A DNA stretch of 64,000 nucleotides from a virus: the IMG/VR virus record IMGVR_UViG_3300029858_000001, positions 27,123-91,122 of that record; one strand, written 5' to 3'. The translations under genes and the position numbers were made by a program. Positions 10,252-50,902 of the stretch are shown piece after piece. Under the pieces are notes generated by a model, which did not search any database, was not told the DNA's origin, and was given only the letters and a program-made list of their open reading frames with translations. Every line of letters starts with the position of its first letter. The stretch's first letter is position 1.

Positions 10252-10252
10252 A

Positions 10253-11044: not shown

Positions 11045-11059
11045 TAAGGAGATTAATAG

Positions 11060-12046
11060 ATGGAAATAAAAAATAGTGAAAAATTATTAGATTCTTTAGT
11101 TATAAATAAAATTCCATCTAAAAAAATTTTTAATTAGATGATTCAAGAAGGGAAAGTAAATAATAATGAAATTTATATGGTATTAGACCATGAAGATTTG
11201 CCATATAAATATACTTTCATCGCGCAAGAAGGAGATACAATATTTACTTTCCCTTTTATTGTTAAAAATCCTGAAGATTTAAATATATTTTTTAATGGTA
11301 TATTAATGACTAAAAACATAAATTATATAATTCAAAATAATAAAATTAAGTTATTAGATTTTGCAGCATCGGCTAATGATAGTATTATTGTTCTTAATAT
11401 TCGAGGAATAGATCCAGAAGATTATCTATCAGATGTAATAAATGATTTATAGATTATAAAAAATGATACTATTTAGGCTATTGATAATAAAATGAGTGAA
11501 TTGCCAGAAGATATGAATGAAATGTTATTAACCTCAAAAAATAATATTATGACAACAGGCAAAATAACTATGAGTAGTTCTTACACACCATCTAGTTCTG
11601 AAGATTTAACTGATAAAAAATATGTTGATTAGTAGATATAGAATAACAAAATTTCTAAAGTAAGTCAATTAACTAATGATGTTGGATATCTTACATCTCA
11701 TTTAGTTAGATCAGTAAATGGAATGACTGGCGATATAAGTATTAAAGGAGCTTATGTTGGAAGTTATATAGGAAATAATGCTTTAACAAAAACTCTTAAT
11801 TTTAATTTTGAACCTGCTTATTTGATGCTATTTATGGTACAAACTAACGCTGGTACTGCTCAAAATTATATGTGTGGCATACAAGGAATGAAATATCCAT
11901 TTCCTAATAATAATGGCACTTATGTTAGTTTTACTTGGAATTCAAAATCAGTTATTATTACTGCTACTAATAGTTATTATACTAATATATTCAATAATAG
12001 CAGTTATACTTATTATTACATGGCAATTCCTAAATTTAATAATTAA
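11060..12046 (+). CDS. Tail fiber protein (KKYVD and LTNDVGYLT motifs); many TAGs including three within 5 codons
   Basis: RBS AAGGAG. Frame-2 reading is continuous from 11060 to TAA at 12044, joining track ORFs 11138 and 11723. The NDxGYxT motif is typical of tail fibers. Confidence 0.55.
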
Positions 12047-12059
12047 AGGAGGCTTTTAA

Positions 12060-12482
12060 ATGTCTAAACCAAAAATTTTAGAATAGATTGAAAATGCAAG
12101 CGGTGTATTTATTGCCACTTATGGAACTACCACTTTTGCCGAAGTCAAAGCAGCTTATGAAGCAGGAAAAATTTTATAGTGTATAGATACATCAGGGGCT
12201 GCTCGCCCAATAGCTTCTTTACTATTAGCTCGTCCCAATGTAGCTTTTGTATTTGGTAATTTTAATAAAACATATTAGATAACCAGTAAAGATGTTTGGC
12301 AAACACAAGATAGTTCTTTAGTCAAAAAATCAGGAAGTACAATGACCGGAGCTTTGGTAGCTTATAATCCTACTGCGATTAATTCAAATAGTGAAATTCA
12401 TAATACAATTATAAGTACGACTGAACCAACAGCATCAGATGGCAATATCGGTGATATTTGGATACAATATGAGGGTGAATAA
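12060..12482 (+). CDS. Hypothetical structural protein; three in-frame TAGs
   Basis: RBS AAAGGAGG, ATG at 12060, frame-0 reading to TAA at 12480. Confidence 0.45.
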
Positions 12483-12495
12483 GGAGTTGATTTAA

Positions 12496-14070
12496 TTGGC
12501 AAAACAAACAATTACTTTAACTAATATGCTTACTAATCCAAGTTTTGAAAATACTGGATGGCAAGCTAACGCTAATTGCTCAGTTGCTTATGATTCTAGC
12601 ATTAAACATTCTGGCTCATATTCTTTAAAAGTTACTTCTACTTCTTCAAGTGAATCATTAATTATTACTACTAATACTTATTCTATAACATAGAATCATA
12701 TTTATTATGTTAGTGTTTGGTTTTATGAAACAGCTAATAATGTAGGATCAATGCAGTGCTATTGGCCAATTGCTGAACCATTAATTGGCACAGCAACAGT
12801 AGATTCAACCAAATTAAATCAATGGCAATAGCTTACTTGGCGTAATACCCGTTCTTCTTGGAGTACTGGAACAGCGCAAGCATTTCGTTTTGATTTTGAA
12901 AGTATGGCATCAGGCAAAATTGCTTATGTAGATGATGCTATGTTAATTGATTTAACCGCAGCTTTTGGAAGTGGTAATGAACCAACACAAGACTGGTGCA
13001 AAAAAAATATTGAATATTTCACTGGTAATACAACTATTCAATATGAAGCTCCTACTATATATGATTTGACTTCTGTAATTCCTAAGATAATTAAAACAGG
13101 TGATATATTAAATTGTCCTTATAGCGGATCTGCTAAATCAATTACTCTTCCAAAAGGATAGTATAAATTAGAATGCTGGGGCGCTTAGGGTGGTACAATG
13201 TCATCATAGGGTTATAATGGTGGCCATGGAGGATATTCAGTAGGCAATATCATTTTAACAAAGAAAGAAACATTATTCTTTTACACAGGAGGAGCAGGTA
13301 CTACTTCAAACACTAATGCTGGATTTAATGGTGGCGGAACAGGTATAAGCAATGGTAGAGGCGGTGGTGGCGCTTCTGATATTCGTATTGGTCAAGATTC
13401 TTTATATGCTAGAGTAATAGTCGCTGGCGGCGGCGGTGGTGCTGGTGTAGGTAGTGCAACTGTAAATCCAGCTGGTTGTGGTGGTGGCTTATATGGCGGT
13501 GATGGATATTATAATAATACCACGGGTCAATATACCTCTGGTACTGCCCGCGATGGTGGAGGCGCTTCACAGACTGCTGGAGGTAAATCTTGGAATACTC
13601 AACCAGCTGGCACTGGAACTTTTGGTAAAGGCGGAAATGCTTCTGGTTATTCTTGTGGTGGAGGAGGCGGCGGCTGGTATGGCGGCGGTGGTGCCTATGA
13701 TAATGACTCAGACTCTGATGGTCGTTGGGGGGGTGGTGGCTCTGGCTATGTATATACTTCATCAACCGCTTCTAATTATCCATCCGGCTGTTTACTTAAT
13801 TCGTCTTATTATTTAACCGATGCTCAAACAATTGCTGGTAATACTGCATTTGCTTCTCCAACAGGAGCAAACGAGATAGGTCATACAGGGAATGGTTATG
13901 TGCGCATTACTGTTATAGAAGCTAAGTCTGGAAATACTTTGATAAAAACTACTTCAAACACTTGGAAAGAATAGAAACAAATGTTTGTAAAAACTACTAC
14001 TACTACTTGGAAACCTATAAAAGGTGTATGGACAAAAATCACATCTGATACTTGGAAACAAACATTATAA
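12496..14070 (+). CDS. Glycine-rich domain protein (putative receptor-binding / fiber protein)
   Basis: RBS AAGGAG then TTG at 12496. Frame-1 reading is continuous across several TAGs and joins track ORF 12904. Gly-rich core YKLECWGA(Q)GGTMSS(Q)GYNGGHGG...GGGGGWYGGGGAYD ends in GNGYVRITVIE. Confidence 0.6.
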
Positions 14071-14163
14071 AATTTGATTTTTAAAAAATTATTTTATATA
14101 ATATAAATGTAAATAAGAAATAAATTTTTTATTTACAGCATTTAACTCACCCCTTTCTTAAAT

Positions 14164-14200
14164 AGGACATAATAATTAAATTATTATGTCCTATTTTTTA
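14164..14200 (+). terminator. Rho-independent terminator
   Basis: AGGACATAATAATTAAATTATTATGTCCT followed by a T-run. Confidence 0.7.
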
Positions 14201-14243
14201 TTTATATAAGAAAATAAAAATAAAATAGGAGGGAGAAAAGTAA

Positions 14244-14678
14244 ATGGCAATAAATTCAAATACTTCTCTTAATGAATTAGTTATACATTAGGTTCCTTCT
14301 AAAACCTTATATAAAACATTAAAAGAAAATGGGTCTATTAGTGGACAAACATTATGCATTATAGATGGTGAACAAGAATAGCGTTTATATAAAGATGAAG
14401 TAAATCAAATGGCTGAAGGCGGCAAAATACAAATGGCTTCATCCTATACTCCAATAGCAGATAACGATGTATGTACAAAGAAATACGCTGATAGTATTAA
14501 TCCAAGTGTTACTCCTACTGTTGGTTTTGATTTAACCAATCAAATTTATATTGGTTCAACTGATCCCGGTTCTAATGCTGCTGCGCTCATATGGGTTGAT
14601 ACTTCTTCATCCGGAGCATTAAAGTATCGCACTTCAAAAACTGATACTTGGAAAATTATTCCTGTCGCTTGGAGTTGA
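14244..14678 (+). CDS. Small tail fiber paralog sharing the C-terminal module of 10253-11044 (LIWVDTSSSGALKYRTSKTDTWKIIPVAWS)
   Basis: RBS GGAGGGAG, ATG at 14244, two TAGs read through into track ORF 14409-14678, TGA stop. Confidence 0.55.
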
Positions 14679-14723
14679 CATTATGAAAAAAATATTATAT
14701 ACTAAATTAAAGGAGATGAAATA

Positions 14724-15449
14724 ATGGCGGAAGATAAACAATATAGTTCAGGTTCGATAGTTGATATAGATAGATTAACTAAATTAAAAGCAAAAGTAAA
14801 AGCTGAATGTTTACGTCGTAAATACACTGGGTCTGTAGAGAATTACGGCGGTTCAACATATGATTTTTCTAATAATCCTATGGTAGGAGGAATTATTAAA
14901 AGAGAATATTATGATAAAAATGCCACTCCTTTAAATGCTATTAATAATAATTTAGTTCCAAAAGCAAATATAACGAACGCTGAAAATGTTGCATTAAATA
15001 ATGAAATATATAATATGGACTATTAGGTTAGTGCTTGGATGACTACTGATAAGGTTAATGATAAACATACTGATTGTGCAAATAGTTGTACAGGTTTATG
15101 TTTAAGCTGTACTGGCTCTTGTACTTCTGGATGTTCAAATACTTGCCGTGCAAATTGTGCAAATGATTGTACTGGTGTTTGCGGTGATGGTTGTACTAAT
15201 TCTTGCAGAGGATGCGGAAGTGGCTGTTCTGGTAGTTGTTATGGCGATTGCGATGGTGGATGTAAAGGCACTTGTACTGTCACTTGCGGTTATCAAGGAT
15301 GCTCTGGAGTATGCTAGGAAGGATGTAAGAGTAACTGCAGCGGCACATGCACTAAAAGTTGTGGGCGTTGTGGAAGTAATAGTTGCTCTGGAGCTTGCAC
15401 TACTTCAAGTACGGGTAATGTCACTGGTAATAGTAGCTCCAACACTTAA
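14724..15449 (+). CDS. Hyper-cysteine-rich CxxxC-repeat protein: about 100-aa N-terminal leader-like region plus about 140-aa Cys-rich region; candidate rSAM/SPASM substrate
   Basis: Track ORFs 14724-15026 and 15039-15317 are in the same frame and joined by TAG. The reading continues past TAG at 15315 to TAA at 15447. The core is CANSCTGLCLSCTGSCTSGCSNTCRANCANDCTGVCGDGC... with about 40 Cys at regular CX3C spacing. Confidence 0.65.
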
Positions 15450-15461
15450 TGAGGATAATAA

Positions 15462-16037
15462 ATGAATGAATTAAAATATAATATATATTTTACCTAGTTA
15501 TTAATAGCCATATAGGAAAATAAAGATATAACAGAATTTTGTAAAAAAATTGATAAAGAATTAAATATTGCAACTGAAGAAGATTGCAAAATAATATTTT
15601 TATCATAGTTTACTAATAATACAATTAAATTATTTAAATTTGATACCATACAAGAAGTAGAAAACTATATTCATAATCTATAGAATTGGTTAAATCAAAT
15701 ACCATGTATAACATCTTTTATTGATGTTTTTCAATATTCTTATATAATTTAGTTTATTATTATGTCAAAAAATTATTATCCTGAAATTGATTTATGTTGC
15801 AAAGATAATATACTTAATTCTATTTTAGATAATTTAGACAAAATTAAAATCAATGCTATTATTTTACCTTTTTTAAATTATTGTTTAAAATTTTATTTAC
15901 AAAAAGGTATTAGTTTAATTTATAAAAATACTTGTGATAAGTTAATTATGAATATAGAAAAATTAATGGAAAATACAAGTATTCGAAATCAAGGTATATT
16001 TAGAATACCATCGTTAGAAAAGGATTTAGAAGAATGA
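15462..16037 (+). CDS. Hypothetical protein, radical-SAM-associated
   Basis: RBS GAGGA then ATG at 15462. It is in frame with track ORF 15762-16037 across 4 TAGs, with no TAA/TGA. TGA stop overlaps the next start. Confidence 0.45.
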
Positions 16038-16303
16038 AGATACAAATTCCAAAAGAACAAAGTAATTATTTAGAAATGCTTACTTATGAAGTACAATGTC
16101 ATCAAGATTTATTAACTTTTATGGCGGCACATGGTATTGATAAAAATATTTCTCAAAATTATTATGAAAAATATCAAGATTATTATATTGAGTTAGCTTT
16201 GGCCAAAGCTCAATTAGAAAGTTATCTAAAAACTCAAATAAATGAACCATTGATTAATTGGTCTTTAGATTTTTTTAGTGCTGAGGTAAGTATAAATGAT
16301 TAA
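16034..16303 (+). CDS. Small rSAM-partner protein (paralog of 38213-38464)
   Basis: Complete track ORF. ATGA overlap with the upstream gene and an overlap with the rSAM-4 start. NYYEKYQDYYIELALAKAQLESYL is similar to NYYLQEYIKAYTDISIFKFQLFKKL in the partner of rSAM-5. Confidence 0.5.
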   Translation: MKIQIPKEQSNYLEMLTYEVQCHQDLLTFMAAHGIDKNISQNYYEKYQDYYIELALAKAQLESYLKTQINEPLINWSLDFFSAEVSIND

Positions 16304-17582
16304 ATTCCCAGGTACTGAAGAATTCACGGATACTTTAGGTCGTTATTTTGGCAGCCCAAATGTTGAAAAAACACGAACTATTACATTTCAAATAACAGAT
16401 GACTGCAATCTATGTTGCTCTTATTGTTATCAAATTAATAAAGGACATCATAAAATGCCTTTTGAGATAGCTAAAACATTAATTGATGAATTACTTTATA
16501 ATGATAAATTAATTGAAAATTATGTAAAATCAAAAAATTCTTTAGGAGTTATATTAGAATTTATTGGTGGTGAACCATTACTTGAAGTAGATTTAATAGA
16601 TTAGATTATTGATTATTTCATAGAATAGTGTATTACTTTGCATCATCCTTGGATTGATAGATTTAGAGTCTCTATTTGTTCTAATGGAGTTTTATATTTT
16701 ACTCCAAAAGTACAAGAATTTATTAAAAAGCATCAAACTCATTTGTCATTTTCAATATCTATTGATGGTAATAAAAAATTGCATGATACTTGTCGTATTT
16801 TTCCAGATGGTACTGGTAGCTATGATTTAGCAATTAAAGCCGCAAAACATTATATGAAGCATTATGATAAAAATTTAGGAAGTAAAATGACTTTATCTAT
16901 AGATAATATTAATTATACTTTCCTTGCATTAGTAAATTTATGGGAAAATGGATATAATTATATTCATGCCAATTGCGTTTATGAAAAAGGCTGGACAATA
17001 GAACATGCACGAGTTTTATATAATGAATTAAAAAAGGTAGCTGATTATCTTCTTAATAATCATTTAGAAAAAATTAAAGGTACTTCTATATTAAATCTTG
17101 ATTTAAGTCAATAGAAAAATATATCAGATCAAAATTTCTGTGGTGGTAATGGTAATATGCTCGCCGTTGATTATAAAGGTGATTTATACCCTTGTTTACG
17201 TTATATGGAAAGTTCAATAGGTAAAAATCAATTACCATATATTATTGGCAATGTTGATGATGGCATTGGATATAACCAATAGACAAAGGATATGATAGCT
17301 GGATTAGATGTAACATATAAATCACAAAGTCCGTAGGACTGTATTGAATGTCCAGTGTCAAGTGAATGCGGTTGGTGTTCTGCTCTTAATTATCAAGAAT
17401 TTGGTACTATTAATAAACGTACTACATATACATGCTTAATGCATAAGGCACGAGTATTAGCAAATTATTATTATCAAAATAAAATGGGCGGTAATTATCC
17501 ATTTTTAATTAATAGACAAGATGCTATAGATATAATCGGTGAAGATGAAACTAACTATTTAATGGAGTTAGCTAATGGATAA
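16296..17582 (+). CDS. Radical SAM / SPASM-domain enzyme (rSAM-4), paralog of rSAM-5
   Basis: ITFQITDDCNLCCSYCYQ (CX3CX2C) and FIGGEPLL. SPASM-like CIECPVSSECGWCSALNY. Frame-0 reading joins track ORFs 16296, 16638 and 17355 across TAGs. Confidence 0.8.
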
Positions 17583-18305: not shown

Positions 18306-18378
18306 GCCGGCATAGCACAGTTGGTAGTGCAGCTGATTTGTAATCAGCAGGTCGGGGGTTCGAATCCGTCTGCCGGCT
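18306..18378 (+). tRNA. tRNA-Thr(UGU)
   Basis: Hand-folded cloverleaf. Acceptor GCCGGCA/TGCCGGC, D-stem GCAC/GTGC, anticodon stem GCTGA/TCAGC with loop TTTGTAA. The T-arm has one mismatch. CCA is not encoded. Confidence 0.6.
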
Positions 18379-18457
18379 CGCTATCATGTGAAAGCCTTCT
18401 CGTGGCGATAGTGTTTTAACTAATTTCACAATTATTTATTAAAGGAGTCATTTAGAT

Positions 18458-19105
18458 ATGGCATACATTTATTAGATAACAAATAATATTAATGGAAAAA
18501 TTTATGTTGGTAAAACAGTAAAAAATAATATTTAGGAACGTTGGAAAGAACACCTTAAAGAGTATAAAAAACCTAGATGTGAAAAACGTCCTTTATATGA
18601 CGCAATGAATAAATATGGTTCAGAAAATTTTTCTATTAAAGAGTTAGAGGAATGTCCATTAGAAGAACTTAATGATAAAGAAGTTTATTGGATTGAAAAA
18701 TTAGGTTCTTTTAAATATGGATATAACGCTACAATTGGCGGAGATGGCAAACAATATATTGACTATGATTTAGTATGCGAAACATATAAGAATTTACAAT
18801 GTATTGTAGATACTGCTAAACAATTAAATATTAGTGAAGATTCAGTTTCTAAAATTTTAAAATTATATAAAATTGATATTATTCCTAATGCTAAAATAGT
18901 TCAAAATAAGTATGGGAAAATAATTAATATGTATGATTTAAATGATAATTATTTAAGGACTTTTCCATCAACAACTGAAGCAGCTAAATTTATGGTAGAA
19001 AATAAATTAACTAATTGTAAAATGACTACTATAAAACAACATATTTCTGAAGTATGCAAAGGTAAACGAAATACAGCTGCTAAGTTTAAATGGAAATATG
19101 CTTAA
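18458..19105 (+). CDS. GIY-YIG homing endonuclease
   Basis: N-terminus MAYIY(Q)ITNNINGKIYVGKTVKNNI(Q)ERWKEH... is the GIY-YIG motif. Two TAGs read through into track ORF 18605-19105. It sits inside the tRNA island. Confidence 0.75.
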
Positions 19106-19118
19106 TTATTATACCATT

Positions 19119-19218
19119 AGCCAAGATTAGATAGTTAATAAAACCGTTTCTAGTTAATAGATTCTAGATGGCCGGGACTCAAAACTGTTGGCAATTCTAA
19201 TCTTGGCTATTTTCTTTT
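19119..19218 (+). terminator. Long imperfect stem-loop (AGCCAAGATTAG ... CTAATCTTGGCT) followed by a T-rich run
   Basis: Inverted repeat read directly downstream of the endonuclease gene. It is unusually long (about 90 nt) and could also be a small structured RNA. Confidence 0.4.
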
Positions 19219-19262
19219 ATTTGAAAAAATTAAAAAAATGATATATAATATATATACAAAAT
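19212..19262 (+). promoter_or_regulatory. Conserved promoter motif (..ATGATATATAATATATATACAAAATAAAGAAA)
   Basis: Same motif family, upstream of 19300-19653. Confidence 0.5.
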
Positions 19263-19299
19263 AAAGAAAAAAATAAATGAGAAAAAGGTGTTAAAAGTT

Positions 19300-19653
19300 A
19301 TGGAATATTCTCTGGATAAGTATAAGTATTATGTCCCCACTAAGGCAGATGGTACACCATATAAGGTTGTTGCAGTTTCTACTTATGCTGGTAGGACTGT
19401 GCGTGGTGTAGCTAAGTGTGATCCGAAGGATACCTTTGATGCTGAAAAGGGTAAGCAGCTTGCTGCAGCACGTTGTCAGGCAAAGGTCAGTTCTCAGCGT
19501 CTGAAGCGTGCTACTAAGAAGCTTGATGAAGCTACTAAGGCACTTGAGAAGGCACAGAAGTATTATGATGATATGACTGTGTATTTCAATGATAGTGCAA
19601 GAGATAAGGAAATGTACGATAGCGTAGTTGAAAGACTTGCTAAGGAAATGTAA
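19300..19653 (+). CDS. Hypothetical protein (TAG-free, higher GC; paralog of 40627-41181)
   Basis: Track ORF with ATG at 19300. It shares the pattern G(T/V)A(R/K)C.P.D...EKG...A.AR with 40627-41181. A terminator follows at 19663-19690. Confidence 0.55.
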   Translation: MEYSLDKYKYYVPTKADGTPYKVVAVSTYAGRTVRGVAKCDPKDTFDAEKGKQLAAARCQAKVSSQRLKRATKKLDEATKALEKAQKYYDDMTVYFNDSARDKEMYDSVVERLAKEM

Positions 19654-19684
19654 TAAATAAGGGTAATTAATTACCCTTTATTAT

Positions 19685-19761
19685 CCGGGTGTAGTTCAGT
19701 TTGGTAGAACGCTTGATTTGGGATCAAGAGGCCGTGAGTTCAAGTCTCGCCACTCGGACCA
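19685..19761 (+). tRNA. tRNA-Pro(UGG)
   Basis: Acceptor CCGGGTG/CACTCGG, anticodon loop TTTGGGA, T-arm GTGAG-TTCAAGT-CTCGC, 3' CCA encoded. Confidence 0.7.
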
Positions 19762-20037
19762 TCAGGGTTCTGTTAAAGATACATAATTGAAAAGGATTGA
19801 TCCCCCTAAGTAAATTAGTATTGGAATGAAAAAATGAGGTCTAGATGACACAGATAACCTCCCCTGAGCCATCCCTTTTGTTAGTAGGTTGTCAGGGTTA
19901 AATAACTAACATTAAAGACACACGCAGCAAATATTAGATAAAATCTATGTGTTATTGGTTCAAGTCCAATATTATCTCTGTTAAGATAATTCGCCCAAAT
20001 GGTAGGGCAATAGCTAATTTATTTAATGTGTCTTGTA

Positions 20038-20085
20038 AATTTGAATTTTAAAAAAAAATATTATATAATATATAAGTAATCAATA
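20038..20085 (+). promoter_or_regulatory. Conserved promoter motif (TTGAATTTTAAAAAAAAATATTATATAATATATAAG) upstream of tRNA-Gln/Tyr
   Basis: TTGAAT, 17-nt spacer, TATAAT. Confidence 0.55.
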
Positions 20086-20110
20086 AGAAATTATTAATTA
20101 CTTATAATTT

Positions 20111-20185
20111 ACTGGTGTCGCCAAGTGGTAAGGCACAGGACTTTGACTCCTGTATTCGTTGGTTCAAATCCAGCCACCAGTGCCA
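20111..20185 (+). tRNA. tRNA-Gln(UUG)
   Basis: Acceptor ACTGGTG/CACCAGT, anticodon stem CAGGA/TCCTG with loop CTTTGAC, discriminator G, CCA. It is very similar to E. coli tRNA-Gln. Confidence 0.7.
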
Positions 20186-20189
20186 ATAT

Positions 20190-20276
20190 AGGTCAGTACA
20201 GTGTAATTGGTATCACCCCTGACTGTAAATCAGGTGCTTAATGCGGTTGTTGGTTCAAGTCCAACCTGGCCTACCA
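20190..20276 (+). tRNA. tRNA-Tyr(GUA), type II with long variable arm
   Basis: Acceptor AGGTCAG/CTGGCCT, anticodon loop CTGTAAA, T-arm GTTGG-TTCAAGT-CCAAC, CCA encoded. Confidence 0.65.
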
Positions 20277-20288
20277 TTTAAAATAAAA

Positions 20289-20330
20289 TTTGAAAATTTA
20301 AAAAAAATATTATATAATATATATATAATA
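20289..20330 (+). promoter_or_regulatory. Conserved promoter motif (TTGAAAATTTAAAAAAAATATTATATAATATATATATAAT) driving the large ncRNA candidate
   Basis: Motif family with -35 TTGAAA and -10 TATAAT. Nothing protein-coding lies downstream for about 1.4 kb. Confidence 0.5.
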
Positions 20331-21720
20331 AATGAACTTTAAAAATTAAATAATAATTTAATTACGGTTATAGTACAACTCAGTGTAGACTTAACACCAT
20401 AAGGCTGAGAAATCGACCCACTCTAGTGGAGATCGTAGAATGAAATATTCAAAGGATACTTTGAAATTATTTCTAAATCTTTTGTAGTGATACATTAGAT
20501 TCACGCATCGAAGGATGTGGCTACGGGGAGATTGTGCTGGAATAATCGCATTTAAGGTCCTGTTCTTCTCGCTTCCATAATAGATAGCATTGTTAATAGC
20601 AATGCCGAATCCTTGTTAGGGTAAGGCTGGTAACCTTGCCAAACCAAGGAAATACCAATAAGGAAGTTGGCAATTGATGTGGCGTAATCCACTATAAGAG
20701 AAGGTCAAGGGTCAAGTAGCCGAAATTTGCCAAGACAGTATATTTTATAGTTAATATTGGTAATTTTAGTTCTGAATGGTCGGTGAAAGATAGAGGTAGT
20801 CAGTCCTCTGTAAGATTTGGCTTAGGCTGGGGCAAGAAGTTATGAAGTCGCTATTCATAGCTCAGACTTGTTTCCTTACTTACCTAATAAAATGAAGATT
20901 ATTAATCAGTAGGGCGAAGGTCCGTAGTATAATTGTAATTAAGTTATTATTTAATAACTTACGATTCCTTTCACAAAGTAATTTTATAACGTATATAACG
21001 GTAAGAAGGTCTATAGGTAGAGAAAACTACAAAGGAATGTGCATATCTTTCCTAATTATTAAAATTACTTTAAAATGAATTATGTAGATGCTAATATAGG
21101 CGGTGGCTTGCATACTACTAATCCCATTGGGTAGCCAATCCCACATCGTTAGGGACCTCTGCGGAACCTGCTCCTATGGCTGTAGGGTTCTTACATAATC
21201 TAATCAAATAAGGTTGACTCGCCTGTTGTCCGGTGAAATGATATATCTGGAAACCGTACTGATACGTATCAGATATTTGATTAGCGTCCTAATCTTGGTT
21301 AATTAGGTAGTGGAACAATACGCTAAACCAGCCAGCTCTCCACTATAAATAAGCTGAATAGGGATGTTTGTGGTTCACATACCAAAAAGCCATTACCAAG
21401 TGCGGAAATAAGATCCTTGGTAGTCTCTCATATAAAGGCGTGGAAAATGAGACGTGATGGACTACGAAAAAGACATATAATAGGTAGAGTTATTATTTAT
21501 TGTGTTAGATTATAGAATGAAAATCCTATTATTAAAAACTGTATATTCTACTTCCTATTGGTAGGTATTATAAGTTTAATGGTAGGTCAAAAATTTAATA
21601 TATTCCAATAGCTAATGAATGAGGTAAGCTGAAGTACTTAGTGGCGTGGGCAGGCATAGAGGCGACCTATAAATGGTTAGTGGCTATGGTGTAGTTTATT
21701 CCTATTGGATATATTAATTT
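20330..21720 (+). ncRNA. Large ORF-free structured ncRNA candidate (GOLLD/ROOL-like phage ornate RNA?)
   Basis: No ORF of 60 aa or more on either strand from 19653 to 22204. Local GC (about 40%) is well above the coding background. It has many G/C-rich short helices, its own promoter, and flanking tRNAs. Class assignment is inference only. Confidence 0.45.
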
Positions 21721-21744
21721 TTGTAAATATATTATACTGAATAA

Positions 21745-21790
21745 TTTGATTTTAAAAAAATTATTTAGTATAATATATTTACAAGATAAA
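21745..21790 (+). promoter_or_regulatory. Conserved promoter motif (TTGATTTTAAAAAAATTATTTAGTATAATATATTTACAAG) upstream of the suppressor tRNA
   Basis: TTGATT, 17-nt spacer, TATAAT. A leader hairpin (AGACAGTTT...AAACTGTCT) lies between the promoter and the tRNA. Confidence 0.55.
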
Positions 21791-21900
21791 GAGAAGTTAG
21801 GATAATTTCTCTAAGACAGTTTCAGCAAATTTTTATTAAAGATAATCATATGTTTTTGGTTCATAAGAAGATACTTTATTAAACTGTCTTGTATATATAT

Positions 21901-21975
21901 TCCGGCTTTGGGTAGCGGTTAGCTCAGCTGACTCTAAATCAGCAAGTCTCAGTTCGACTCTGAGAGCCGGTGCCA
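21901..21975 (+). tRNA. Amber suppressor tRNA, anticodon CUA (reads UAG); identity probably Gln
   Basis: Acceptor 3' strand AGCCGGT pairs with CCGGCT at 21902-21907. Anticodon stem GCTGA/TCAGC with loop CT-CTA-AA (U33 present). T-arm CTCAG-TTCGACT-CTGAG. Discriminator G then CCA. Short variable loop (type I). Confidence 0.7.
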
Positions 21976-22074
21976 GGCGTAAGGCTCACGCAGCAAATTT
22001 ACTTTTGAAAGTTCACCTAAAATGAATTGCTATTTTTCAAAATTGAGTCTTGATTTAATTAATATAGTTTATTT

Positions 22075-22160
22075 GCCGGTGTGGTGGAATGGTAGACACA
22101 AGGGACTTAAAATCCCTCGGTGGCAACACCATGCGGGTTCGAGTCCCGCCACCGGCACCA
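22075..22160 (+). tRNA. tRNA-Leu(UAA), type II
   Basis: Acceptor GCCGGTG/CACCGGC, anticodon loop CTTAAAA, long variable arm, T-arm GCGGG-TTCGAGT-CCCGC, CCA encoded. Confidence 0.7.
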
Positions 22161-22164
22161 TTAA

Positions 22165-22415
22165 ACAATAGTAGCTAACGGCAGTTGAATAGACGGGTCG
22201 GGGCTAACATAGAAAGGTTAGCAGGTAGTGCGGCGGTAGGTAACAAATCCGCAAGTCGAAATGAGTTGGGAAATCCAAATGATACGGCTTAGATGTTTTC
22301 CTCACTTGAGGTTTGGATGGAGATTTTAGGCAAAGGATAACAACCTTTGACTGCCATCCTGTAAAGCGACCATGAAACAGGGTCATAGCTACCATACTAT
22401 TGTTTATTAATACCA
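22165..22415 (+). ncRNA. Second GC-balanced non-coding stretch between tRNA-Leu and tRNA-Gly (small structured RNA candidate)
   Basis: About 250 nt with no credible ORF. The minus-strand track ORF 22204-22416 has no RBS and lies in the tRNA island. Several complementary segments are visible, for example GGTTAGC..GCTAAC and CCAAAT..ATTTGG. Confidence 0.3.
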
Positions 22416-22420
22416 AATAT

Positions 22421-22494
22421 CCAGGATTAGTTTAATGGTAAAACTGGTGATTTCCAATCATCTGTTGGGAGTTCAATTCTCCTATCCTGGTCCA
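22421..22494 (+). tRNA. tRNA-Gly(UCC)
   Basis: Acceptor CCAGGAT/ATCCTGG, D-stem GTTT/AAAC, anticodon stem GGTGA/TCATC with loop TTTCCAA, T-arm GGGAG-TTCAATT-CTCCT, CCA. Confidence 0.65.
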
Positions 22495-26229: not shown

Positions 26230-27366
26230 ATGAAGAAGTTTATTGCTATTATTATGGCAGTAATTATGGTTATGTCATTTGCTACCATTGCTTTCGCAGC
26301 AAATGGATTTACTGATGTATCCAAAAGTAAGTATGAAACGGCGATTAATGAACTTTATGATCTTGGTATTGTAAATGGATATAGTGCAACTAAGTTTGGT
26401 ACTGATTATACACTTACTCGTGCTGAGGCTTGTGCTATCATTGTTCGTGCGCTTTATGGTGAAAAGACTGTACCTGATGTAATTAATTTTACTGATGTAT
26501 CTTATCGTGATTGGTTCTATGATTATGTTAATACCGCTGTGTATTATGATATTATGCATGGTCATAATGCTACAACTTTTGCTCCTAATGATGAGATTAC
26601 ATATGATCAAATGGCTACTCTTATTCTAAATGCTCTTGGCTATAATGCTCCACGGCTTTCAGGCGAATGGCCTACCAACGTAAGAACTATTACTAATCGT
26701 TTGAATCTTTATACTAATCTTTCTTATTTTATTGATGGATCTGAATATATCACTCGTGGTGAAGCTTGTCAGATGCTTTATAATGCCCTTGATTGTTATG
26801 TAGTTGAATATGTAAATTCTCGAATCGTAGAAACCGATTATACTCTATATGAAAAGATGGGCTTTAGTTATGAACCAGAATATATTTATGTTACTGGCAC
26901 TATTACAGACATCGTTAATGTAAGTGATTATTATCGCACCAATACTTATTATTACCTTATCACATTAAATGATTATAATACTTATTTGGTAAATAGTGAT
27001 ACTAAACTTGATGTTAAGGATTATATCGAAATTTATACTGATAAGAAAACTGCTTATTATAATGATTATCTTTGGGTAGTTTCTTATGTTAGTAAGAATA
27101 TCGCTGATCCCTCATACATTCAAGGAATTGTTGAAAAAGTGGTAATTGATCCTACGACAGATCCTTACGATGATGGAGTTTATATTTGGACTACTTATTT
27201 TGTAACTATCAAAGATAAGGGAACTTTTGTAGTTTATACTTATAACCTTTTCAATGCTGAAGATACTGTTATTTTGACTCCTGTTGTTGGCAGTACTCAT
27301 TATAATTTAACGGTTATTGAAAGAGCTGATTCTGGTATTATTGACCCTGGTTTTCCTGTGGGTTAA
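26230..27366 (+). CDS. Secreted S-layer-homology (SLH) domain protein
   Basis: N-terminal signal peptide MKKFIAIIMAVIMVMSFATIAFA. Repeated SLH-like segments are FTDVSKS..AINELYDLGIVNGY and FTDVSYRDWFYDYV...HGH. It is TAG-free and a terminator follows. Confidence 0.65.
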   Translation: MKKFIAIIMAVIMVMSFATIAFAANGFTDVSKSKYETAINELYDLGIVNGYSATKFGTDYTLTRAEACAIIVRALYGEKTVPDVINFTDVSYRDWFYDYVNTAVYYDIMHGHNATTFAPNDEITYDQMATLILNALGYNAPRLSGEWPTNVRTITNRLNLYTNLSYFIDGSEYITRGEACQMLYNALDCYVVEYVNSRIVETDYTLYEKMGFSYEPEYIYVTGTITDIVNVSDYYRTNTYYYLITLNDYNTYLVNSDTKLDVKDYIEIYTDKKTAYYNDYLWVVSYVSKNIADPSYIQGIVEKVVIDPTTDPYDDGVYIWTTYFVTIKDKGTFVVYTYNLFNAEDTVILTPVVGSTHYNLTVIERADSGIIDPGFPVG

Positions 27367-27374
27367 TTAATCTA

Positions 27375-27412
27375 AAAGGACTGAAGAAATTCAGTCCTTT
27401 ATTTTTTTTTGT
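27375..27412 (+). terminator. Rho-independent terminator
   Basis: AAAGGACTGAAGAAATTCAGTCCTTT followed by a T10 run. Confidence 0.75.
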
Positions 27413-27414
27413 AT

Positions 27415-27455
27415 TTTTATAAAAAAATATATTATAATATATTTATAGAATAAAG
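27415..27455 (+). promoter_or_regulatory. Conserved promoter motif (AAAAAAATATATTATAATATATTTATAGAATAAAGAAGG)
   Basis: Same motif family. Confidence 0.5.
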
Positions 27456-27467
27456 AAGGGAAATAAT

Positions 27468-27704
27468 ATGAAAAAAATCTTAATTGATGCTCCTCTTGAA
27501 TATGTAGCTGGTCATTTACGCTATGGTCATTTAGAAGGAGTTATAGAAATATCTGATGAAGAATTTGAAAAATTTAAAAAAAATCCAATTGATTTCCTTT
27601 ATGATAATGAATACATAGATGAATTGGACCTTTTAATTGATGATTGGAGAGTTGAGGATCGCGGTCCAATTGATAGGGTTGAATGGTCGGAGTGTGAATC
27701 GTAA
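27468..27704 (+). CDS. Hypothetical protein
   Basis: Complete TAG-free track ORF. Confidence 0.5.
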   Translation: MKKILIDAPLEYVAGHLRYGHLEGVIEISDEEFEKFKKNPIDFLYDNEYIDELDLLIDDWRVEDRGPIDRVEWSECES

Positions 27705-28567
27705 TGGCTGTAAATAGATATACTAAAGTTAAAGAAGACTGGTCTGGTGAAAATTTTGGTAATAATTGGACTATAGTTAAAAAATTATCTTGTTCTGAAT
27801 ATCGTAAAATTTATGAAGAAATGACTGGAGATAATACAAAAATAATTAAAAATTCTCATTATCTTTGTCATAATAATAATTGCGGAGTCGATACTTATCT
27901 TGAAAGAACTGTAATTGAAAGAGCGAAAAAAAATGGTATTTTGAGTAAATGTAAAGGGTGTGCTGGTATTGTCACTAGCAATTGTTGGTATAGCACTCTT
28001 TGTAGACAGAAAAATTTAACTAAAGTTCCTGATAGAACAGTAAAAGTCAAAGTTGGAGATACTTTTGGCTTTTGGAAAGTTTTAGAAATTTATAATAGTA
28101 GTGCTTCTACTGATCATCAGATTAGAGCAAAATGTCAATGTAAAAATTGCGGAGAAATTAAGGATATTCGTTTAGATACTCTTCAAAATAAAGATGCTAA
28201 ATGTGAATGTTTTAAAAACCGCAGTACCGGAGAACAATTAGTTAAAGAGTATTTAGATAAAAACAATATAAAATATAAATCTGAATATAAATTTCCTAAT
28301 TTAACAGGATTAGGACATGGTAATTTACGTTATGATTTTGCCATTTTAAACAATGAAAATAAAGTAACAAAATTAATTGAATTTGATGGTGAACAGCATT
28401 TTCAAGAAGCTGGAAGTTATTATAATGAAACTGGTCAAGTTCAAATCCATGATGCAATCAAAGATGAATTTGCAAAAATAAATAATATTCCTTTATTGCG
28501 TATTGCTTATTTTGAAAAAAATGAAATTGATAGTAAGTTAAATGATTTTTTATTTGAAATTTTATAA
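27704..28567 (+). CDS. Putative endonuclease with Cys-rich N-terminus and Vsr/DUF559-like PD-(D/E)XK C-terminal domain
   Basis: C-terminus LRYDFAILNN..KLIEFDGEQHF...IHDAIKDEFAKINNIPLLRIAYFE resembles the Vsr/DUF559 endonuclease fold. TAG-free. Confidence 0.45.
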   Translation: MAVNRYTKVKEDWSGENFGNNWTIVKKLSCSEYRKIYEEMTGDNTKIIKNSHYLCHNNNCGVDTYLERTVIERAKKNGILSKCKGCAGIVTSNCWYSTLCRQKNLTKVPDRTVKVKVGDTFGFWKVLEIYNSSASTDHQIRAKCQCKNCGEIKDIRLDTLQNKDAKCECFKNRSTGEQLVKEYLDKNNIKYKSEYKFPNLTGLGHGNLRYDFAILNNENKVTKLIEFDGEQHFQEAGSYYNETGQVQIHDAIKDEFAKINNIPLLRIAYFEKNEIDSKLNDFLFEIL

Positions 28568-28600
28568 AAAATATAATATAATTTATATAGAAAATAAATG
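28562..28600 (+). promoter_or_regulatory. Conserved promoter motif (AAAAAATATAATATAATTTATATAGAAAATAAATGAG) plus leader hairpin
   Basis: Same motif family. Hairpin TCCTCTTGTCCAAGAGGA follows. Confidence 0.5.
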
Positions 28601-28651
28601 AGAAATTTCCTCTTGTCCAAGAGGAGTCAATGAGAAAAAGGAGATTTAATT

Positions 28652-30190
28652 ATGAATAAATTTATGAATGGTATCAATGCAATGGAAAATACTATTACTA
28701 CTGAAAATGGCGCAACTGCGTATGGTTCTACTCTTACTGCCCTTTATGATATGTTTGCTCTTGGTGGTAGCTATCGTTCCAGAAGTGATGATGATTGTAT
28801 TTTCCTTTTTAAAAAGGCTTTTGAAGAAAATGAACCTTATGCATTGAAGTGCCTTTTCTATCTGCGTGATGTACGTGGCGGCCAGGGTGAACGTAGATTC
28901 TTCCGCGTTTGTATGAAGTGGCTGGCTACTCAGAATATTGATGCGGCAAAGCGCAATTTGAAATATGTTCCTGAATTTGGACGTTGGGATGATTTGTATC
29001 TGTTTGTCGGCACTCCTTGCCAGGATGAAGCATTTAAGTTTATGAAGGAACAGCTTGCATTGGATCTTACTTGTAAAACTCCTTCTCTTCTGGCTAAGTG
29101 GCTGAAGTCTGAAAATACCAGTTCTCAGGAATCTCGTGAACTTGCTTCTAAAACTCGTCGTTATCTGGGTATGACTTCTAAGCAGTATCGTAAAACTCTT
29201 TCTGTTCTGCGTGAACGTATTAACGTTCTTGAACGTCTTATGTCCGCAGGTAAATGGGATGAAATTGAATTTGATAAGATTCCTTCTCGTGCCGGCTTCC
29301 TTTATAAAAATGCTTTTGCCAGACATGATGTTGAACGTGCAAAGGCAGGAGCAAAAACCTATGAAGATTTTGCCAAGGATACTACCACTAAGGTAAATGC
29401 TAAAACTCTTTATCCTTATGAATGTGTAGAAAAGGCTCGTGAAGCAATGGGATGTGGTTATAGCTGGTTCGGCTATAGAACTCCTACTACTAATACTGTT
29501 GATCGTCTGATGGTCAATAAGTATTGGGAAAATCTTGCTGATTATATCAATGGGGCAGCTTTTAATGGTATTGCCATCGTAGATACTTCTGGTTCTATGT
29601 GTGGTAGTGGTTATGGTAATCGTACTGTAGCTCCTATTGATGTTGCCATCTCTATTGGTATGTATTGTGCTGAAAAAAATCGTGGACCTTATGCTGGTCA
29701 TTTCTTGACCTTCAATAGTCAGCCTAAATTCATGAAGGTTGAAGGCATTGATTTCTGTGATAAGGTTAGTCGTATTCTTCAGGCTCCTTGGGGCGGTAGC
29801 ACTAATATCGAAGCAGCATTTGATTTGATTCTACAGATTGCCATTGATAATAATTGTTCTTCTGATGAAATTCCTCAGAATTTGATTGTCATTTCTGATA
29901 TGGAATTTAACAGTTGTGTAACCAGTAATAATTATCGTTTTTCTGCGACTGATGCTTCTTTGTTTGAAAAAATGAGAGCTAAGTGGGAAAGTTATGGTTA
30001 TAAAATGCCTAAGCTGGTATTCTGGAATGTCGATGCTCGTCAGGATAATTTTGCGATGAAGGATGAAAAGAATGTGTCTTATGTCTCTGGCTTCTCTCCT
30101 GTTCTTTTTGAACAGATTATGAAGGGTAAGACAGCACAGGATTTGATGTACGATAAACTTAATGATAAGCGTTACGCTTGTATTAAGTAA
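28652..30190 (+). CDS. TROVE-like + von Willebrand A (MIDAS) domain protein, Ro60/TEP1-like architecture (DUF2828-type)
   Basis: 512-aa TAG-free ORF with higher GC. The N-terminal alpha-helical region carries YLRDVRGGQGERRFFR. The C-terminal vWA domain has MIDAS IAIVDTSGSMCGSG. The TROVE assignment is from family recall and not computed. Confidence 0.55.
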   Translation: MNKFMNGINAMENTITTENGATAYGSTLTALYDMFALGGSYRSRSDDDCIFLFKKAFEENEPYALKCLFYLRDVRGGQGERRFFRVCMKWLATQNIDAAKRNLKYVPEFGRWDDLYLFVGTPCQDEAFKFMKEQLALDLTCKTPSLLAKWLKSENTSSQESRELASKTRRYLGMTSKQYRKTLSVLRERINVLERLMSAGKWDEIEFDKIPSRAGFLYKNAFARHDVERAKAGAKTYEDFAKDTTTKVNAKTLYPYECVEKAREAMGCGYSWFGYRTPTTNTVDRLMVNKYWENLADYINGAAFNGIAIVDTSGSMCGSGYGNRTVAPIDVAISIGMYCAEKNRGPYAGHFLTFNSQPKFMKVEGIDFCDKVSRILQAPWGGSTNIEAAFDLILQIAIDNNCSSDEIPQNLIVISDMEFNSCVTSNNYRFSATDASLFEKMRAKWESYGYKMPKLVFWNVDARQDNFAMKDEKNVSYVSGFSPVLFEQIMKGKTAQDLMYDKLNDKRYACIK

Positions 30191-30195
30191 TTTAT

Positions 30196-30222
30196 AAGGC
30201 GGAGCAATCCGCCTTATTTTTA
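30196..30222 (+). terminator. Rho-independent terminator
   Basis: AAGGCGGAGCAATCCGCCTT followed by ATTTTTAT. Confidence 0.7.
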
Positions 30223-30238
30223 TATAAGGGAGAAAATA

Positions 30239-30550
30239 ATGACATATAATCAAAGATTGCTTTAGCGTAGAGATACATTAGTTAATTGGATAAATAGTAA
30301 TCCTGTTTTATTAGACGGAGAATTGGGTTTTATAGAGATTAATGGAAATTATACATAGATGGTTATTGGAGACGGAAAACGTTCTTTTAATAATCTACCT
30401 AAAATAAAATTAAACTTCGATGAACCTGTGACTAAAATAAAATTAGACTCTGACGAATTTACAATTTGCTCTTACTCAACTAATTCTAGCTCCATTGTAG
30501 CTAACAAAAATTTATTCCCTTGGGTAGAAGATGATTATTTTATTTTTTAA
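30239..30550 (+). CDS. Small adaptor-module protein (VIGDGKRSFNNLPKIK); three in-frame TAGs
   Basis: ATG at 30239, reads through TAGs into track ORF 30359-30550, TAA stop. Confidence 0.4.
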
Positions 30551-30590
30551 TTAAAATTTTATATAATATATATAGAAAATAAAGAAAGGA
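30545..30590 (+). promoter_or_regulatory. Conserved promoter motif (TTTATATAATATATATAGAAAATAAAGAAAGG)
   Basis: Same motif family, directly upstream of a 53-aa ORF and the MVP gene. Confidence 0.55.
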
Positions 30591-30599
30591 ATAATTCTT

Positions 30600-30761
30600 A
30601 TGTCTATTATTTTTGATAAATTTGTTCGTTTTACTAATCCGCGTACTGGTAAGATTGAAATTGGAGAAATTATTTCTTCCAATAGCAAAGCAATTGTTAT
30701 TAAAAGTTATAATCACATTTGTGTTATTCCCACAAACGAAGTTAATAAATATGAGGATTAA
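30600..30761 (+). CDS. Small hypothetical protein (53 aa)
   Basis: ATG 25 nt after the promoter motif. Too short for the ORF track. TAA stop 5 nt before the MVP start. Confidence 0.35.
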   Translation: MSIIFDKFVRFTNPRTGKIEIGEIISSNSKAIVIKSYNHICVIPTNEVNKYED

Positions 30762-30766
30762 AAATT

Positions 30767-50529: not shown

Positions 50530-50547
50530 GAGAAGATTATACTTAAA

Positions 50548-50847: not shown

Positions 50848-50890
50848 TTTGCATTTCAAAAAATTTTTTAATATAATATAAATAAAGAAA
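50845..50890 (+). promoter_or_regulatory. Conserved promoter motif (TTGATTTGCATTTCAAAAAATTTTTTAATATAATATAAATAAAGAAAGG)
   Basis: TTGATT .. TATAAT. Confidence 0.5.
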
Positions 50891-50902
50891 GGGACATAAA
50901 TT

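Follow-up and report, generated by a model that had tools for sequence, protein, structure and literature searches.

Evidence for TAG-to-glutamine recoding and a phage-encoded suppressor tRNA in a 64-kb stretch of an SPbeta-like phage genome

Introduction

Is the amber codon TAG still a stop signal in a phage that carries a tRNA with the matching anticodon, and if not, which amino acid does it stand for? The question is raised by positions 27,123 to 91,122 of the IMG/VR virus record IMGVR_UViG_3300029858_000001, a stretch of 64,000 nucleotides (hereafter the window), in which a tRNA gene with the anticodon CUA, tRNA(CUA), lies among genes with in-frame TAG. A first reading of the letters alone (the original prediction) had proposed genome-wide translation of TAG, probably as glutamine (Gln), as in translation table 15 (code 15). 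Recoding of TAG to Gln by phage tRNAs is already known from gut phages, and the window is a well-supported new example. We put the probability that part of this phage genome uses TAG as a Gln codon, decoded by its own tRNA(CUA), at about 90%.

Results

TAG is read as a sense codon in most genes of the window

We compared the fraction of the plus strand lying in open frames of at least 100 codons under alternative codes. The results showed a coverage of 0.638 under the standard code (code 11), which rose to 0.888 when TAG was read as sense and only to 0.655 when TGA was. Reading TAA as sense raised the coverage of both strands alike, an artefact of AT-richness (31% GC in the window). Reassignment of TGA or TAA was rejected on these grounds, the former bringing no real gain and the latter inflating both strands.

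With TAA and TGA as the only stops, 68 plus-strand open reading frames (ORFs) covered 88% of the window. In-frame TAG occurred in 43 of them, consistent with the claim that dozens of genes are continuous only if TAG is translated. The total was 156 TAGs, or 151 after removal of two spurious ORFs lying over tRNAs, within 12,368 codons of TAG-containing genes. The fibre gene cited in the original prediction as having 879 codons encodes 878 amino acids plus the stop and contains four TAGs. The 66 retained ORFs ended in TAA (51) or TGA (15), in line with the normal termination that had been stated; as the ORFs are themselves defined by these two codons, a TAG may now and then be the real end of a gene, with a few further codons wrongly included. 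The motif C-N-L-TAG-C-P-Y-C was present in the radical SAM enzyme rSAM-3, with its TAG at 9325. TAG at such conserved functional positions supports obligatory recoding and the use of code 15 for the TAG-containing genes.

TAG stands opposite Gln in standard-code homologues

The amino acid was read from alignments, above all of the RecJ-like exonuclease, which contains 14 TAGs and has thousands of full-length homologues. Among about 115 homologues of about 50% identity, Gln occupied six of the 14 TAG columns in 102-115 of 115 sequences (at least 114 for four of these columns) and made up 45% of all cells at the TAG columns against a background of 3.7%. The TAGs at 61084 (residue 68) and 61843 (residue 321) lie on invariant or near-invariant Gln columns.

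Since table 15 had evidently been applied to some contigs in the database, the RecJ codons were checked in the DNA of retrieved loci (labelled L plus a number) to guard against circularity. In the standard-code relatives L001 and L002, RecJ has no in-frame TAG and shows CAA or CAG at the six Gln columns. A 96%-identical relative (L005) has CAA opposite a TAG of the window, and in L003, which is independently recoded, five of seven RecJ TAGs sit on CAA or CAG of L001. We also assembled 15 TAG-free RecJ genes from SPbeta, from prophages of cultured Terribacillus, Alkalihalobacillus, Roseburia and Hominimerdicola isolates, and from metagenomic relatives. Gln was the commonest residue at the TAG columns of this set (24.5% versus a background of 3.1%), and column 321 was Gln in all 15 genes (CAA in nine, CAG in six).

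L001 is effectively a standard-code locus, with a coverage of 0.945 under code 11 versus 0.946 with TAG as sense and one TAG in 6,231 codons. That sole in-frame TAG among its 22 called genes lies in a yorJ-like gene (8863-9984), five codons before the annotated end, and is probably a true stop overrun by the database gene caller.

Beyond RecJ, TAGs of the window in syntenic genes stood opposite Gln at 13 of 35 columns in L001 and at 9 of 21 columns in the cultured phage SPbeta (background 3-4%). Ordinary Gln codons of the window were conserved in L001 at 41%. Self-matching of E, K, W, Y and L was 48-70%, and the commonest alternatives opposite TAG, E and K, reached only 14% each. In every comparison Gln led the residues found at TAG columns, with an 8- to 12-fold enrichment. 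In the PhoH protein, the TAG at 42479 (residue 343) falls on the Gln of ILDEAQNTT (DEAQN) in the solved structure 3b85. The outcomes that the original prediction had named as refuting (no gain in coding density, TAG facing gaps or stops, failure of the covariance model) were all checked, directly or approximately, and each result favoured recoding. Codon usage changed in parallel: the frequency of CAG was 2.7 per mille in TAG-containing genes versus 13.0 in TAG-free genes, a five-fold depletion, and the Gln codons of TAG-containing genes comprised 264 CAA, 151 TAG (about one third) and 33 CAG. These alignments indicate that TAG encodes Gln.

The original prediction had reached Gln from one position between two paralogues, FTPKV-CAA(16713)-EFIKK in rSAM-4 (16296-17582) and FTDKV-TAG(38874)-KYIKK in rSAM-5. 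This alignment is present, but the lone position is weak: the paralogues are 40% identical, too divergent to assign an amino acid alone, and TAG there also faces E, R, K, N and Y. The Gln assignment itself stands, and it rests on the comparisons with standard-code homologues instead. The two paralogues share one TAG (16602 in rSAM-4, 38760 in rSAM-5). Aligned to CteB, the radical SAM enzymes carry their TAGs at variable positions (K, Q, I, Y), which are uninformative for the amino acid.

Two other accounts of these TAGs were weighed. TAG might still be a stop, with the genes being pseudogenes, assembly errors or subject to rare leaky readthrough; code 11 does leave genes fragmented, and the host presumably has release factor 1 (RF1). 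This is extremely unlikely, since the ORFs that hold about 150 in-frame TAGs contain no in-frame TAA or TGA, similarity to homologues runs across every TAG over the full length of RecJ, PhoH and the radical SAM enzymes, and the same TAG pattern recurs in independent assemblies from different samples. Moreover, TAG shows no accumulation at the 3' ends of ORFs, where the final decile has the lowest count; the island locus described below retains a dedicated CUA tRNA; and genes with 13-14 TAGs would yield negligible product unless suppression reached about 90% or more per codon. That TAG is sense for another residue (Lys, Glu, Trp, Tyr, Leu or pyrrolysine) is very unlikely as well. ARAGORN labels any CUA tRNA 'Pyl', homologues show K, E, D or R opposite TAG in variable columns, and Lys charging of amber suppressors is possible in E. 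coli (PMC2965240). Against this, the Gln frequency at TAG is close to the self-conservation of ordinary Gln codons and the alternatives fall far short of their expected self-matching; the invariant Gln columns carry CAA or CAG in code-11 genomes; and the suppressor is a canonical type I cloverleaf with G73, whereas LysRS favours A73. Its short variable arm rules out bacterial Tyr, Leu and Ser bodies, and Pfam scans of about 16,100 of the roughly 18,750 translated window residues revealed no pyrrolysine biosynthesis or PylS domain. A pyrrolysine system was rejected: the tRNA fits the general tRNA model, the TAG columns are Gln, and the 'Pyl' label reflects the anticodon only.

A suppressor tRNA lies in a tRNA and noncoding RNA island

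ARAGORN placed a tRNA with the anticodon CTA at exactly 21901-21975 on the plus strand, the only suppressor among seven tRNA genes of the window, all on this strand. The sequence agreed with the original prediction in its anticodon, U33, discriminator G73 and encoded CCA. The Rfam tRNA covariance model scored it at 49.1 bits (gathering score 29) and marked the 1:72 pair as non-standard. The acceptor stem (UCCGGCU / AGCCGGU) keeps pairs 2-7, and U1 faces U72 without pairing; the anticodon loop reads C-U-CUA-A-A, with A37 and A38. Near-identical copies of this tRNA in IMG/VR contigs yielded no covariation.

The tRNA had also been described as lying behind its own promoter. A TTGATT-17-TATAAT match does occur 127 nt upstream and is conserved in L212 and L209 (first hexamer TTGAAA there) within the common upstream flank. 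It is weak evidence, because such matches are frequent in AT-rich DNA (34 found versus 23 expected in the consensus scan); tRNA(CUA) would be transcribed from this site. Between it and the tRNA lies a leader with an inverted repeat, AAGACAGTTT ... AAACTGTCTT, kept upstream of two suppressor types (A and B, below), which may form a processing or regulatory hairpin. The window also encodes a tRNA-Gln(UUG), and CAA is its dominant standard Gln codon.

The island as a whole has the same architecture in L209, L212 and L213. A sensitive blastn search with it matched generic tRNA segments only. Two further RNAs were observed in it: a full-length ROOL RNA (Rfam RF03087, 320 bits) at 20355-20942, conserved in L209, L212 and L213 and preceded in the window by a promoter-like TTGAAA-17-TATAAT at 20290-20318, and a full-length RAGATH-33 RNA (RF03102, 138 bits) at 22174-22286, between tRNA-Leu and tRNA-Gly, found also in L210, L212 and L213. 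The coordinates of these and other features are collected in Table 1.

Table 1. Features of the window and suppressor tRNAs of related contigs
Feature	Position	Strand	Basis and remarks
Fibre-like protein, 878 aa, 4 TAGs	1204-3840	+	Continuous only with TAG readthrough
Radical SAM enzyme rSAM-3	9289-10251	+	Pfam; TAG 9325 inside CxxxCxxC motif
tRNA/ncRNA (noncoding RNA) island: tRNA-Thr, Pro, Gln, Tyr, ROOL RNA, tRNA(CUA), tRNA-Leu, RAGATH-33, tRNA-Gly	18306-22494	+	ARAGORN, Rfam
Phage tRNA-Gln(UUG), reads CAA	20111-20185	+	ARAGORN; Rfam 65.4 bits; codon counts
Promoter-like site TTGATT-17-TATAAT	21746-21774	+	Consensus scan; 127 nt 5' of tRNA(CUA)
Leader with 10-nt inverted-repeat arms AAGACAGTTT / AAACTGTCTT	21813-21890	+	Sequence reading; 3' end 10 nt before tRNA
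Amber suppressor tRNA(CUA), type A	21901-21975	+	ARAGORN, Rfam RF00005, acceptor-end analysis, near-identical copies in IMG/VR contigs
Mostly TAG-free block: SLH protein, DUF2828/DUF7788, major-vault-protein-like, NADAR, phosphoesterases, GNAT, SPFH/flotillin	26230-38047	+	Pfam; codon statistics
Radical SAM/SPASM-like rSAM-5, 6 TAGs	38406-39755	+	TAG 38874 aligned to CAA 16713 of rSAM-4
PIN + PhoH protein, 5 TAGs	41453-42709	+	Pfam; PDB alignment
Small hydrophobic protein, 4 TAGs (57% of Gln codons)	44073-44531	+	Just 3' of CHAP+amidase endolysin
TAG-free block: RNase H, GyrB, GyrA, ATP-dependent DNA ligase	45839-52111	+	Pfam; codon statistics
GIY-YIG endonuclease, 10 TAGs (37% of Gln codons)	52782-53780	+	Pfam
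RecJ-like exonuclease (SPbeta yorK homologue), 14 TAGs	60883-62625	+	Homologue alignments, SPbeta synteny
Type A CUA tRNA	Window 21901-21975; L212 8369-8443; L007		1:72 = U-U
Type B CUA tRNA	L209 8541-8615		1:72 = G-A; D-arm resembles tRNA-Gln
Type C CUA tRNA	L210 1393-1467; L213 8521-8595		1:72 = U-C; Rfam 38.9 bits

The acceptor end of the suppressor points to probable Gln charging

Recognition of a tRNA by glutaminyl-tRNA synthetase (GlnRS) includes a weak or broken 1:72 pair. We compared the suppressor with a reference set of 580 phage tRNAs predicted in the retrieved loci. A U1 was found in 90% of Gln and 78% of Asn tRNAs and in at most 24% of every other isotype; U1 together with G73 was found in 69% of Asn and 30% of Gln tRNAs and in at most 8% of every other isotype. 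A single base change in the anticodon would convert Gln, Lys, Glu, Trp, Tyr, Leu or Ser tRNAs to CUA, and of these isotypes only Gln commonly has U1. A non-paired 1:72 occurred in at most 10% of every isotype except Met. The Gln-identity features present in the tRNA of the window are U35, G73, U1 and the unpaired 1:72. Its anticodon stem, sought with any anticodon in viral contigs, occurred in many isotypes (Lys, Tyr, Thr, Asn, Arg, Met and others); being generic, it says nothing on ancestry. The unpaired 1:72, G73, CCA and U35 likely make tRNA(CUA) a substrate of the host Gln-charging machinery, which would be GlnRS, or GluRS plus GatCAB. In E. coli, GlnRS charges CUA derivatives of G73 tRNA-Trp, and amber suppressors with A73 and G1-C72 tend toward LysRS charging (PMC2965240).

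Three unrelated suppressors occupy the same locus in relatives

Using the 863-aa protein that flanks the island, we retrieved five related IMG/VR contigs. All five were recoded, and all five carried a CUA tRNA at the same position, after ROOL and before tRNA-Leu, RAGATH-33 and tRNA-Gly. The results revealed three unrelated CUA tRNA sequences at this locus (types A, B and C; 35-41 of 75 positions identical), type A being that of the window. A cloverleaf fold was obtained for types B and C. ARAGORN failed to call type C, whose T-loop (GGCAGCA) is non-canonical. In whole-body similarity, type B ranked Gln first by a narrow margin. Despite their unrelated bodies, the three types are alike in having pairs 2-7 intact, 1:72 unpaired, G73, an encoded CCA, and A37 and A38.

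In an alignment of the locus, the promoter-like region and the leader upstream are common to types A and B as far as base 1 of the tRNA, and the downstream flank is common to types A and C from just past the CCA. The suppressor type carried by a contig did not track the similarity of the flanking protein. From the sequences, this looks like cassette-style replacement of the suppressor with convergence on one acceptor-end signature. The loci retrieved around RecJ contained no tRNA except one tRNA-Gln(UUG) in L034 and are therefore unusable for correlating suppressor with code.

TAG is distributed unevenly among genes

TAG-containing genes included those for the fibre-like proteins, five radical SAM/SPASM-like enzymes, two GIY-YIG endonucleases, the PIN+PhoH protein, the CHAP+amidase endolysin and a replication module collinear with that of SPbeta. 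Within the window, TAG made up the largest share of Gln codons in a radical SAM gene (0.73), RecJ (0.58) and the small hydrophobic protein at 44073-44531 (0.57), which by position and sequence is possibly a holin. The claim of genome-wide recoding was too broad in one respect: TAG occurs in 43 of 68 ORFs, but the other 25, with 6,380 of 18,748 codons (about one third of the coding capacity), are TAG-free and lie in blocks, a mixed-code pattern. At the overall rate of TAG, the probability that all 6,380 codons lack it is about 1e-22, so the distribution among genes is not random.

The TAG-free genes differ in codon usage. Those for RNase H, GyrB, GyrA and the ligase show the native bias of the window (GC content at third codon positions, GC3, 0.12-0.18; CAA far above CAG), and TAG accounts for none of their 60 Gln codons. 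For GyrA, GyrB and the ligase alone the count is 0 of 55, with chance probabilities of 6e-3, 2e-3 and 4e-2 for these three large genes. The DUF2828, major-vault-protein-like and SPFH genes are also TAG-free, with a GC3 of 0.28-0.32 and Gln written almost entirely as CAG (CAG:CAA 13:0, 27:1 and 17:6), whereas the rest of the window uses CAA; these three genes may be recent acquisitions.

A contrast between neighbouring core genes was found in relatives from two independently recoded lineages. DNA polymerase III alpha, a protein of about 1,275 aa, is encoded with no TAG and 56 CAA/CAG in L005 (15079-18906) and one TAG and 43 CAA/CAG in L003 (15062-18892), while the nearby RecJ gene contains 13 TAGs in L005 (10001-11743) and seven in L003 (10001-11734). 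Within genes of the window, TAG is skewed toward the 5' end relative to CAA and CAG of the same genes (mean relative position 0.43 versus 0.52, p = 0.001). The skew recurs in nine other recoded loci, L010-L012, L016-L020 and L031 (0.42 versus 0.50, p = 4e-5), which are homologous and not fully independent, and it survives skipping of the first 15 codons.

Other observations on gene content

The five radical SAM/SPASM-like genes (5929-17582 and 38406-40568) are interleaved with fibre-like genes; among solved structures, CteB (5wgg) comes nearest to their products. Next to these genes lie two Cys-rich repeat proteins (14724-15449 and 39759-40568), an arrangement that suggests post-translational modification of structural or secreted proteins. 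The DUF2828/DUF7788, major-vault-protein-like (Vault_3 plus MVP_shoulder) and SPFH/flotillin genes form a cluster at 28652-33256 and 36977-38047, with NADAR, phosphoesterase and GNAT genes between them. An ORF at 54072-54716 resembled ThyX by eye; it gave no Pfam hit and is assigned no function.

The window belongs to a phage distantly related to SPbeta

A megablast search with 10.6 kb of the window gave no match among deposited phages. The best annotated relatives were SPbeta-group phages, with 39% identity to yorK (RecJ) by tblastn, and the gene order yorF, yorG (Sak4), yorH, yorI (DnaB), yorJ, yorK (RecJ) matched that of SPBc2; Pfam domains in the relatives were YorF, YorH, AAA_24, DnaB and DHH. 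From gene order and homology, the window is part of a large phage genome, with related contigs of about 105-190 kb; the collinearity speaks for a distant relationship to Bacillus phage SPbeta, not for membership of its genus.

Scanning of bacterial and archaeal assemblies with a RecJ profile revealed many contigs of about 145-176 kb in Firmicutes metagenome-assembled genomes (MAGs) from animal guts, and one 96%-identical contig binned as Mollicutes. Among the replication modules of 30 relatives, about ten showed the TAG-sense signature, about 20 were standard and none was TGA-recoded. Contigs of 145-176 kb, such as L009 and L012 (CAMELE010000010.1 and CAMELE010000001.1), look like complete phage genomes in bacterial bins, and the labels on these relatives include 'uncultured Mollicutes', Acutalibacteraceae, Clostridium sp., Lachnospiraceae and Bacilli. 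These contigs are probably phage genomes placed in the wrong bin, or prophages, and their labels are not to be relied on for assigning a host. Taken together, the SLH domain, the SPbeta synteny and the MAG labels of relatives suggest that the host is probably a gut Firmicute.

Discussion

A private Gln codon and its possible use

The anticodon of the phage tRNA(CUA) pairs with UAG, where it would compete with RF1, and about two-thirds of the genes use TAG as Gln under table 15, with TAA and TGA apparently the sole remaining terminators. In the recoded genes, TAG has largely replaced CAG as the second Gln codon, and the phage tRNA-Gln(UUG) reads CAA. TAG is lacking in genes that would need to function under the standard code of the host, namely RNase H, GyrB, GyrA and ligase and, with a single TAG in one of two relatives, DNA polymerase III alpha. 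The structural, radical SAM, PhoH, RecJ, homing endonuclease and possible holin products would in turn stay incomplete until the suppressor is active. TAG thus probably acts as a translational timer that would delay a defined gene set until that moment. Our fuller proposal is that the suppressor is an exchangeable cassette with junctions at the tRNA ends, that a minimal set of features captures the host Gln-charging enzyme, and that TAG placement is selected as a translational gate. We offer it tentatively and at somewhat less than even odds. If it were true, a phage could acquire, maintain and exchange a codon of its own with hardly any machinery devoted to it.

Several findings weigh against these interpretations. 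About 60% of TAG columns face non-Gln residues in homologues, which is expected at variable sites and includes some noise. Folded as a single sequence for minimum free energy, type A does not form a cloverleaf, nor is the fold significantly stable (z = -1.03 versus shuffles); the covariance model was used for the tRNA call instead. With the anticodon masked, a nearest-neighbour search of the 580 tRNAs gave type A alike similarity to Arg, Asn, Met, Gln and Thr bodies. The co-occurrence of suppressor and code is one-sided, since the retrieved island relatives are all recoded and standard-code genomes are not among them. The genes for DnaB, YorJ, Sak4 and especially RecJ contain TAG, so a simple early-versus-late split fails and the delayed set is not just 'late'. 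The Pfam scans, which covered about 16,100 of the roughly 18,750 translated residues of the window, showed no release factor, aminoacyl-tRNA synthetase or anti-RF1 function. Finally, the codon usage of the DUF2828, vault-like and SPFH genes looks foreign, and a late arrival in the genome may account for the absence of TAG from them better than timing does.

The last point leads to an account in which Gln recoding is real and the distribution of TAG reflects history: CAG drifted neutrally to TAG under AT pressure, and the TAG-free genes are recent standard-code acquisitions. The higher GC3 and almost exclusive CAG of those three genes agree with it, as do the patchiness of recoding among close relatives and the fact that gyrase, ligase, vault-like and SPFH genes were not seen in the 42-kb SPbeta region examined. 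However, GyrB, GyrA, the ligase and RNase H are fully native in codon bias and yet TAG-free, the polymerase and RecJ genes differ sharply in TAG content in two recoded lineages although both are core and adjacent, and a 5' skew is not predicted by neutral drift. We consider history unlikely as the whole explanation, while giving it real weight. It is less likely still that the tRNA(CUA) of the window is insufficient and that further phage functions encoded outside it are needed, such as release factor 2 (RF2), an RF1 antagonist, a tRNA-modifying or -charging enzyme, or more suppressor copies. One supE-type tRNA suffices for amber suppression in E. coli, and the Pfam scans found no such gene in the scanned part of the window, although the window is only 64 kb of a genome of probably 105-190 kb. 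Among TAG-recoded phages, some of the Lak and Agate groups encode RF2, and Jade phages have a 'code-change module', but most recoded phages so far described lack such genes (bioRxiv 10.1101/2021.08.26.457843); phAss-1 carries three suppressor copies (PMC10607447).

Significance

In practice, this genome and many of its relatives need annotation with table 15, as table 11 loses about a quarter of the coding sequence and splits genes. The window adds an SPbeta-like lineage, probably of Firmicutes, to the phages with TAG-to-Gln recoding. Standard-code, lightly recoded and heavily recoded genomes occur here within about 50% protein identity and form a natural series for the study of codon capture. 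The interchangeable suppressors, the contrast between RecJ and polymerase, and the 5' bias of TAG bear on the purpose of recoding and on the origin of the Gln identity of suppressors; a limited literature search found no description of suppressor-cassette turnover, of this contrast or of this bias.

Comparison with known recoded phages and suppressors

Code-15 gut phages that read TAG as Gln are known among the crAss-like, Lak, Garnet, Amethyst, Agate and Topaz phages (Borges et al., bioRxiv 10.1101/2021.08.26.457843), and such recoding has been validated by proteomics (Peters et al. 2022, PMC9523058). Partial use of TAG across a genome, a phage tRNA(CUA) and the intermixing of code-11 and code-15 relatives are likewise established (bioRxiv 10.1101/2021.08.26.457843; PMC9523058; PMC10607447), and a timing model, in which TAG delays a gene set until the suppressor is present, was put forward by Borges et al. 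(bioRxiv 10.1101/2021.08.26.457843). In coding density, in TAG facing Gln, in its suppressor tRNA and in its mixed coding, the phage of the window shows the defining features of code-15 phages. It resembles them in its in-frame TAG on Gln, its tRNA(CUA), its low GC content and its partial recoding, as well as in the preference for structural, lysis and homing-endonuclease genes, the variability among replication genes and the intermixed codes of relatives. It differs in its SPbeta-like gene order from yorF to yorK, in having no close deposited genome, and in that RecJ, a replication and recombination gene, is among its most strongly recoded.

Among these groups, the Agate clade (about 127-154 kb, Firmicutes hosts, mixed codes) resembles the related contigs in their size of 105-190 kb, their Firmicutes bins and their recoded homing endonucleases. 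Membership is plausible; the clades are defined on TerL, which lies outside the window. Similarly, phAss-1 of the proposed Phassvirus comes from the gut virome; its genome measures about 136 kb, contains TAG in 41 ORFs and lacks a dedicated synthetase, and its suppressor tRNA-CTA genes were judged Gln-type (Babkin et al. 2023, PMC10607447). It carries three suppressor copies and 36 tRNAs, against one suppressor among seven tRNAs in the window. By the nucleotide test the two are not of the same group, the tested window segments being without similarity to any deposited phage.

SPbeta itself shares the collinear yorF-yorK module, followed in the relatives by a yorL-type polymerase, but uses the standard code, so that the TAG columns of the window are ordinary codons there. 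Within the 42 kb of SPbeta that were examined, the gyrase, vault-like and SPFH genes are without counterpart. As for the tRNA, a U35 anticodon with G73 is found likewise in E. coli supE tRNA-Gln CUA and su7 tRNA-Trp CUA. Those suppressors are single-mutation laboratory or host types of partial efficiency in a standard-code genome, whereas the tRNA of the window serves about 150 sense TAGs in 64 kb, and in the relatives of this phage three unrelated tRNA bodies fill the same role.

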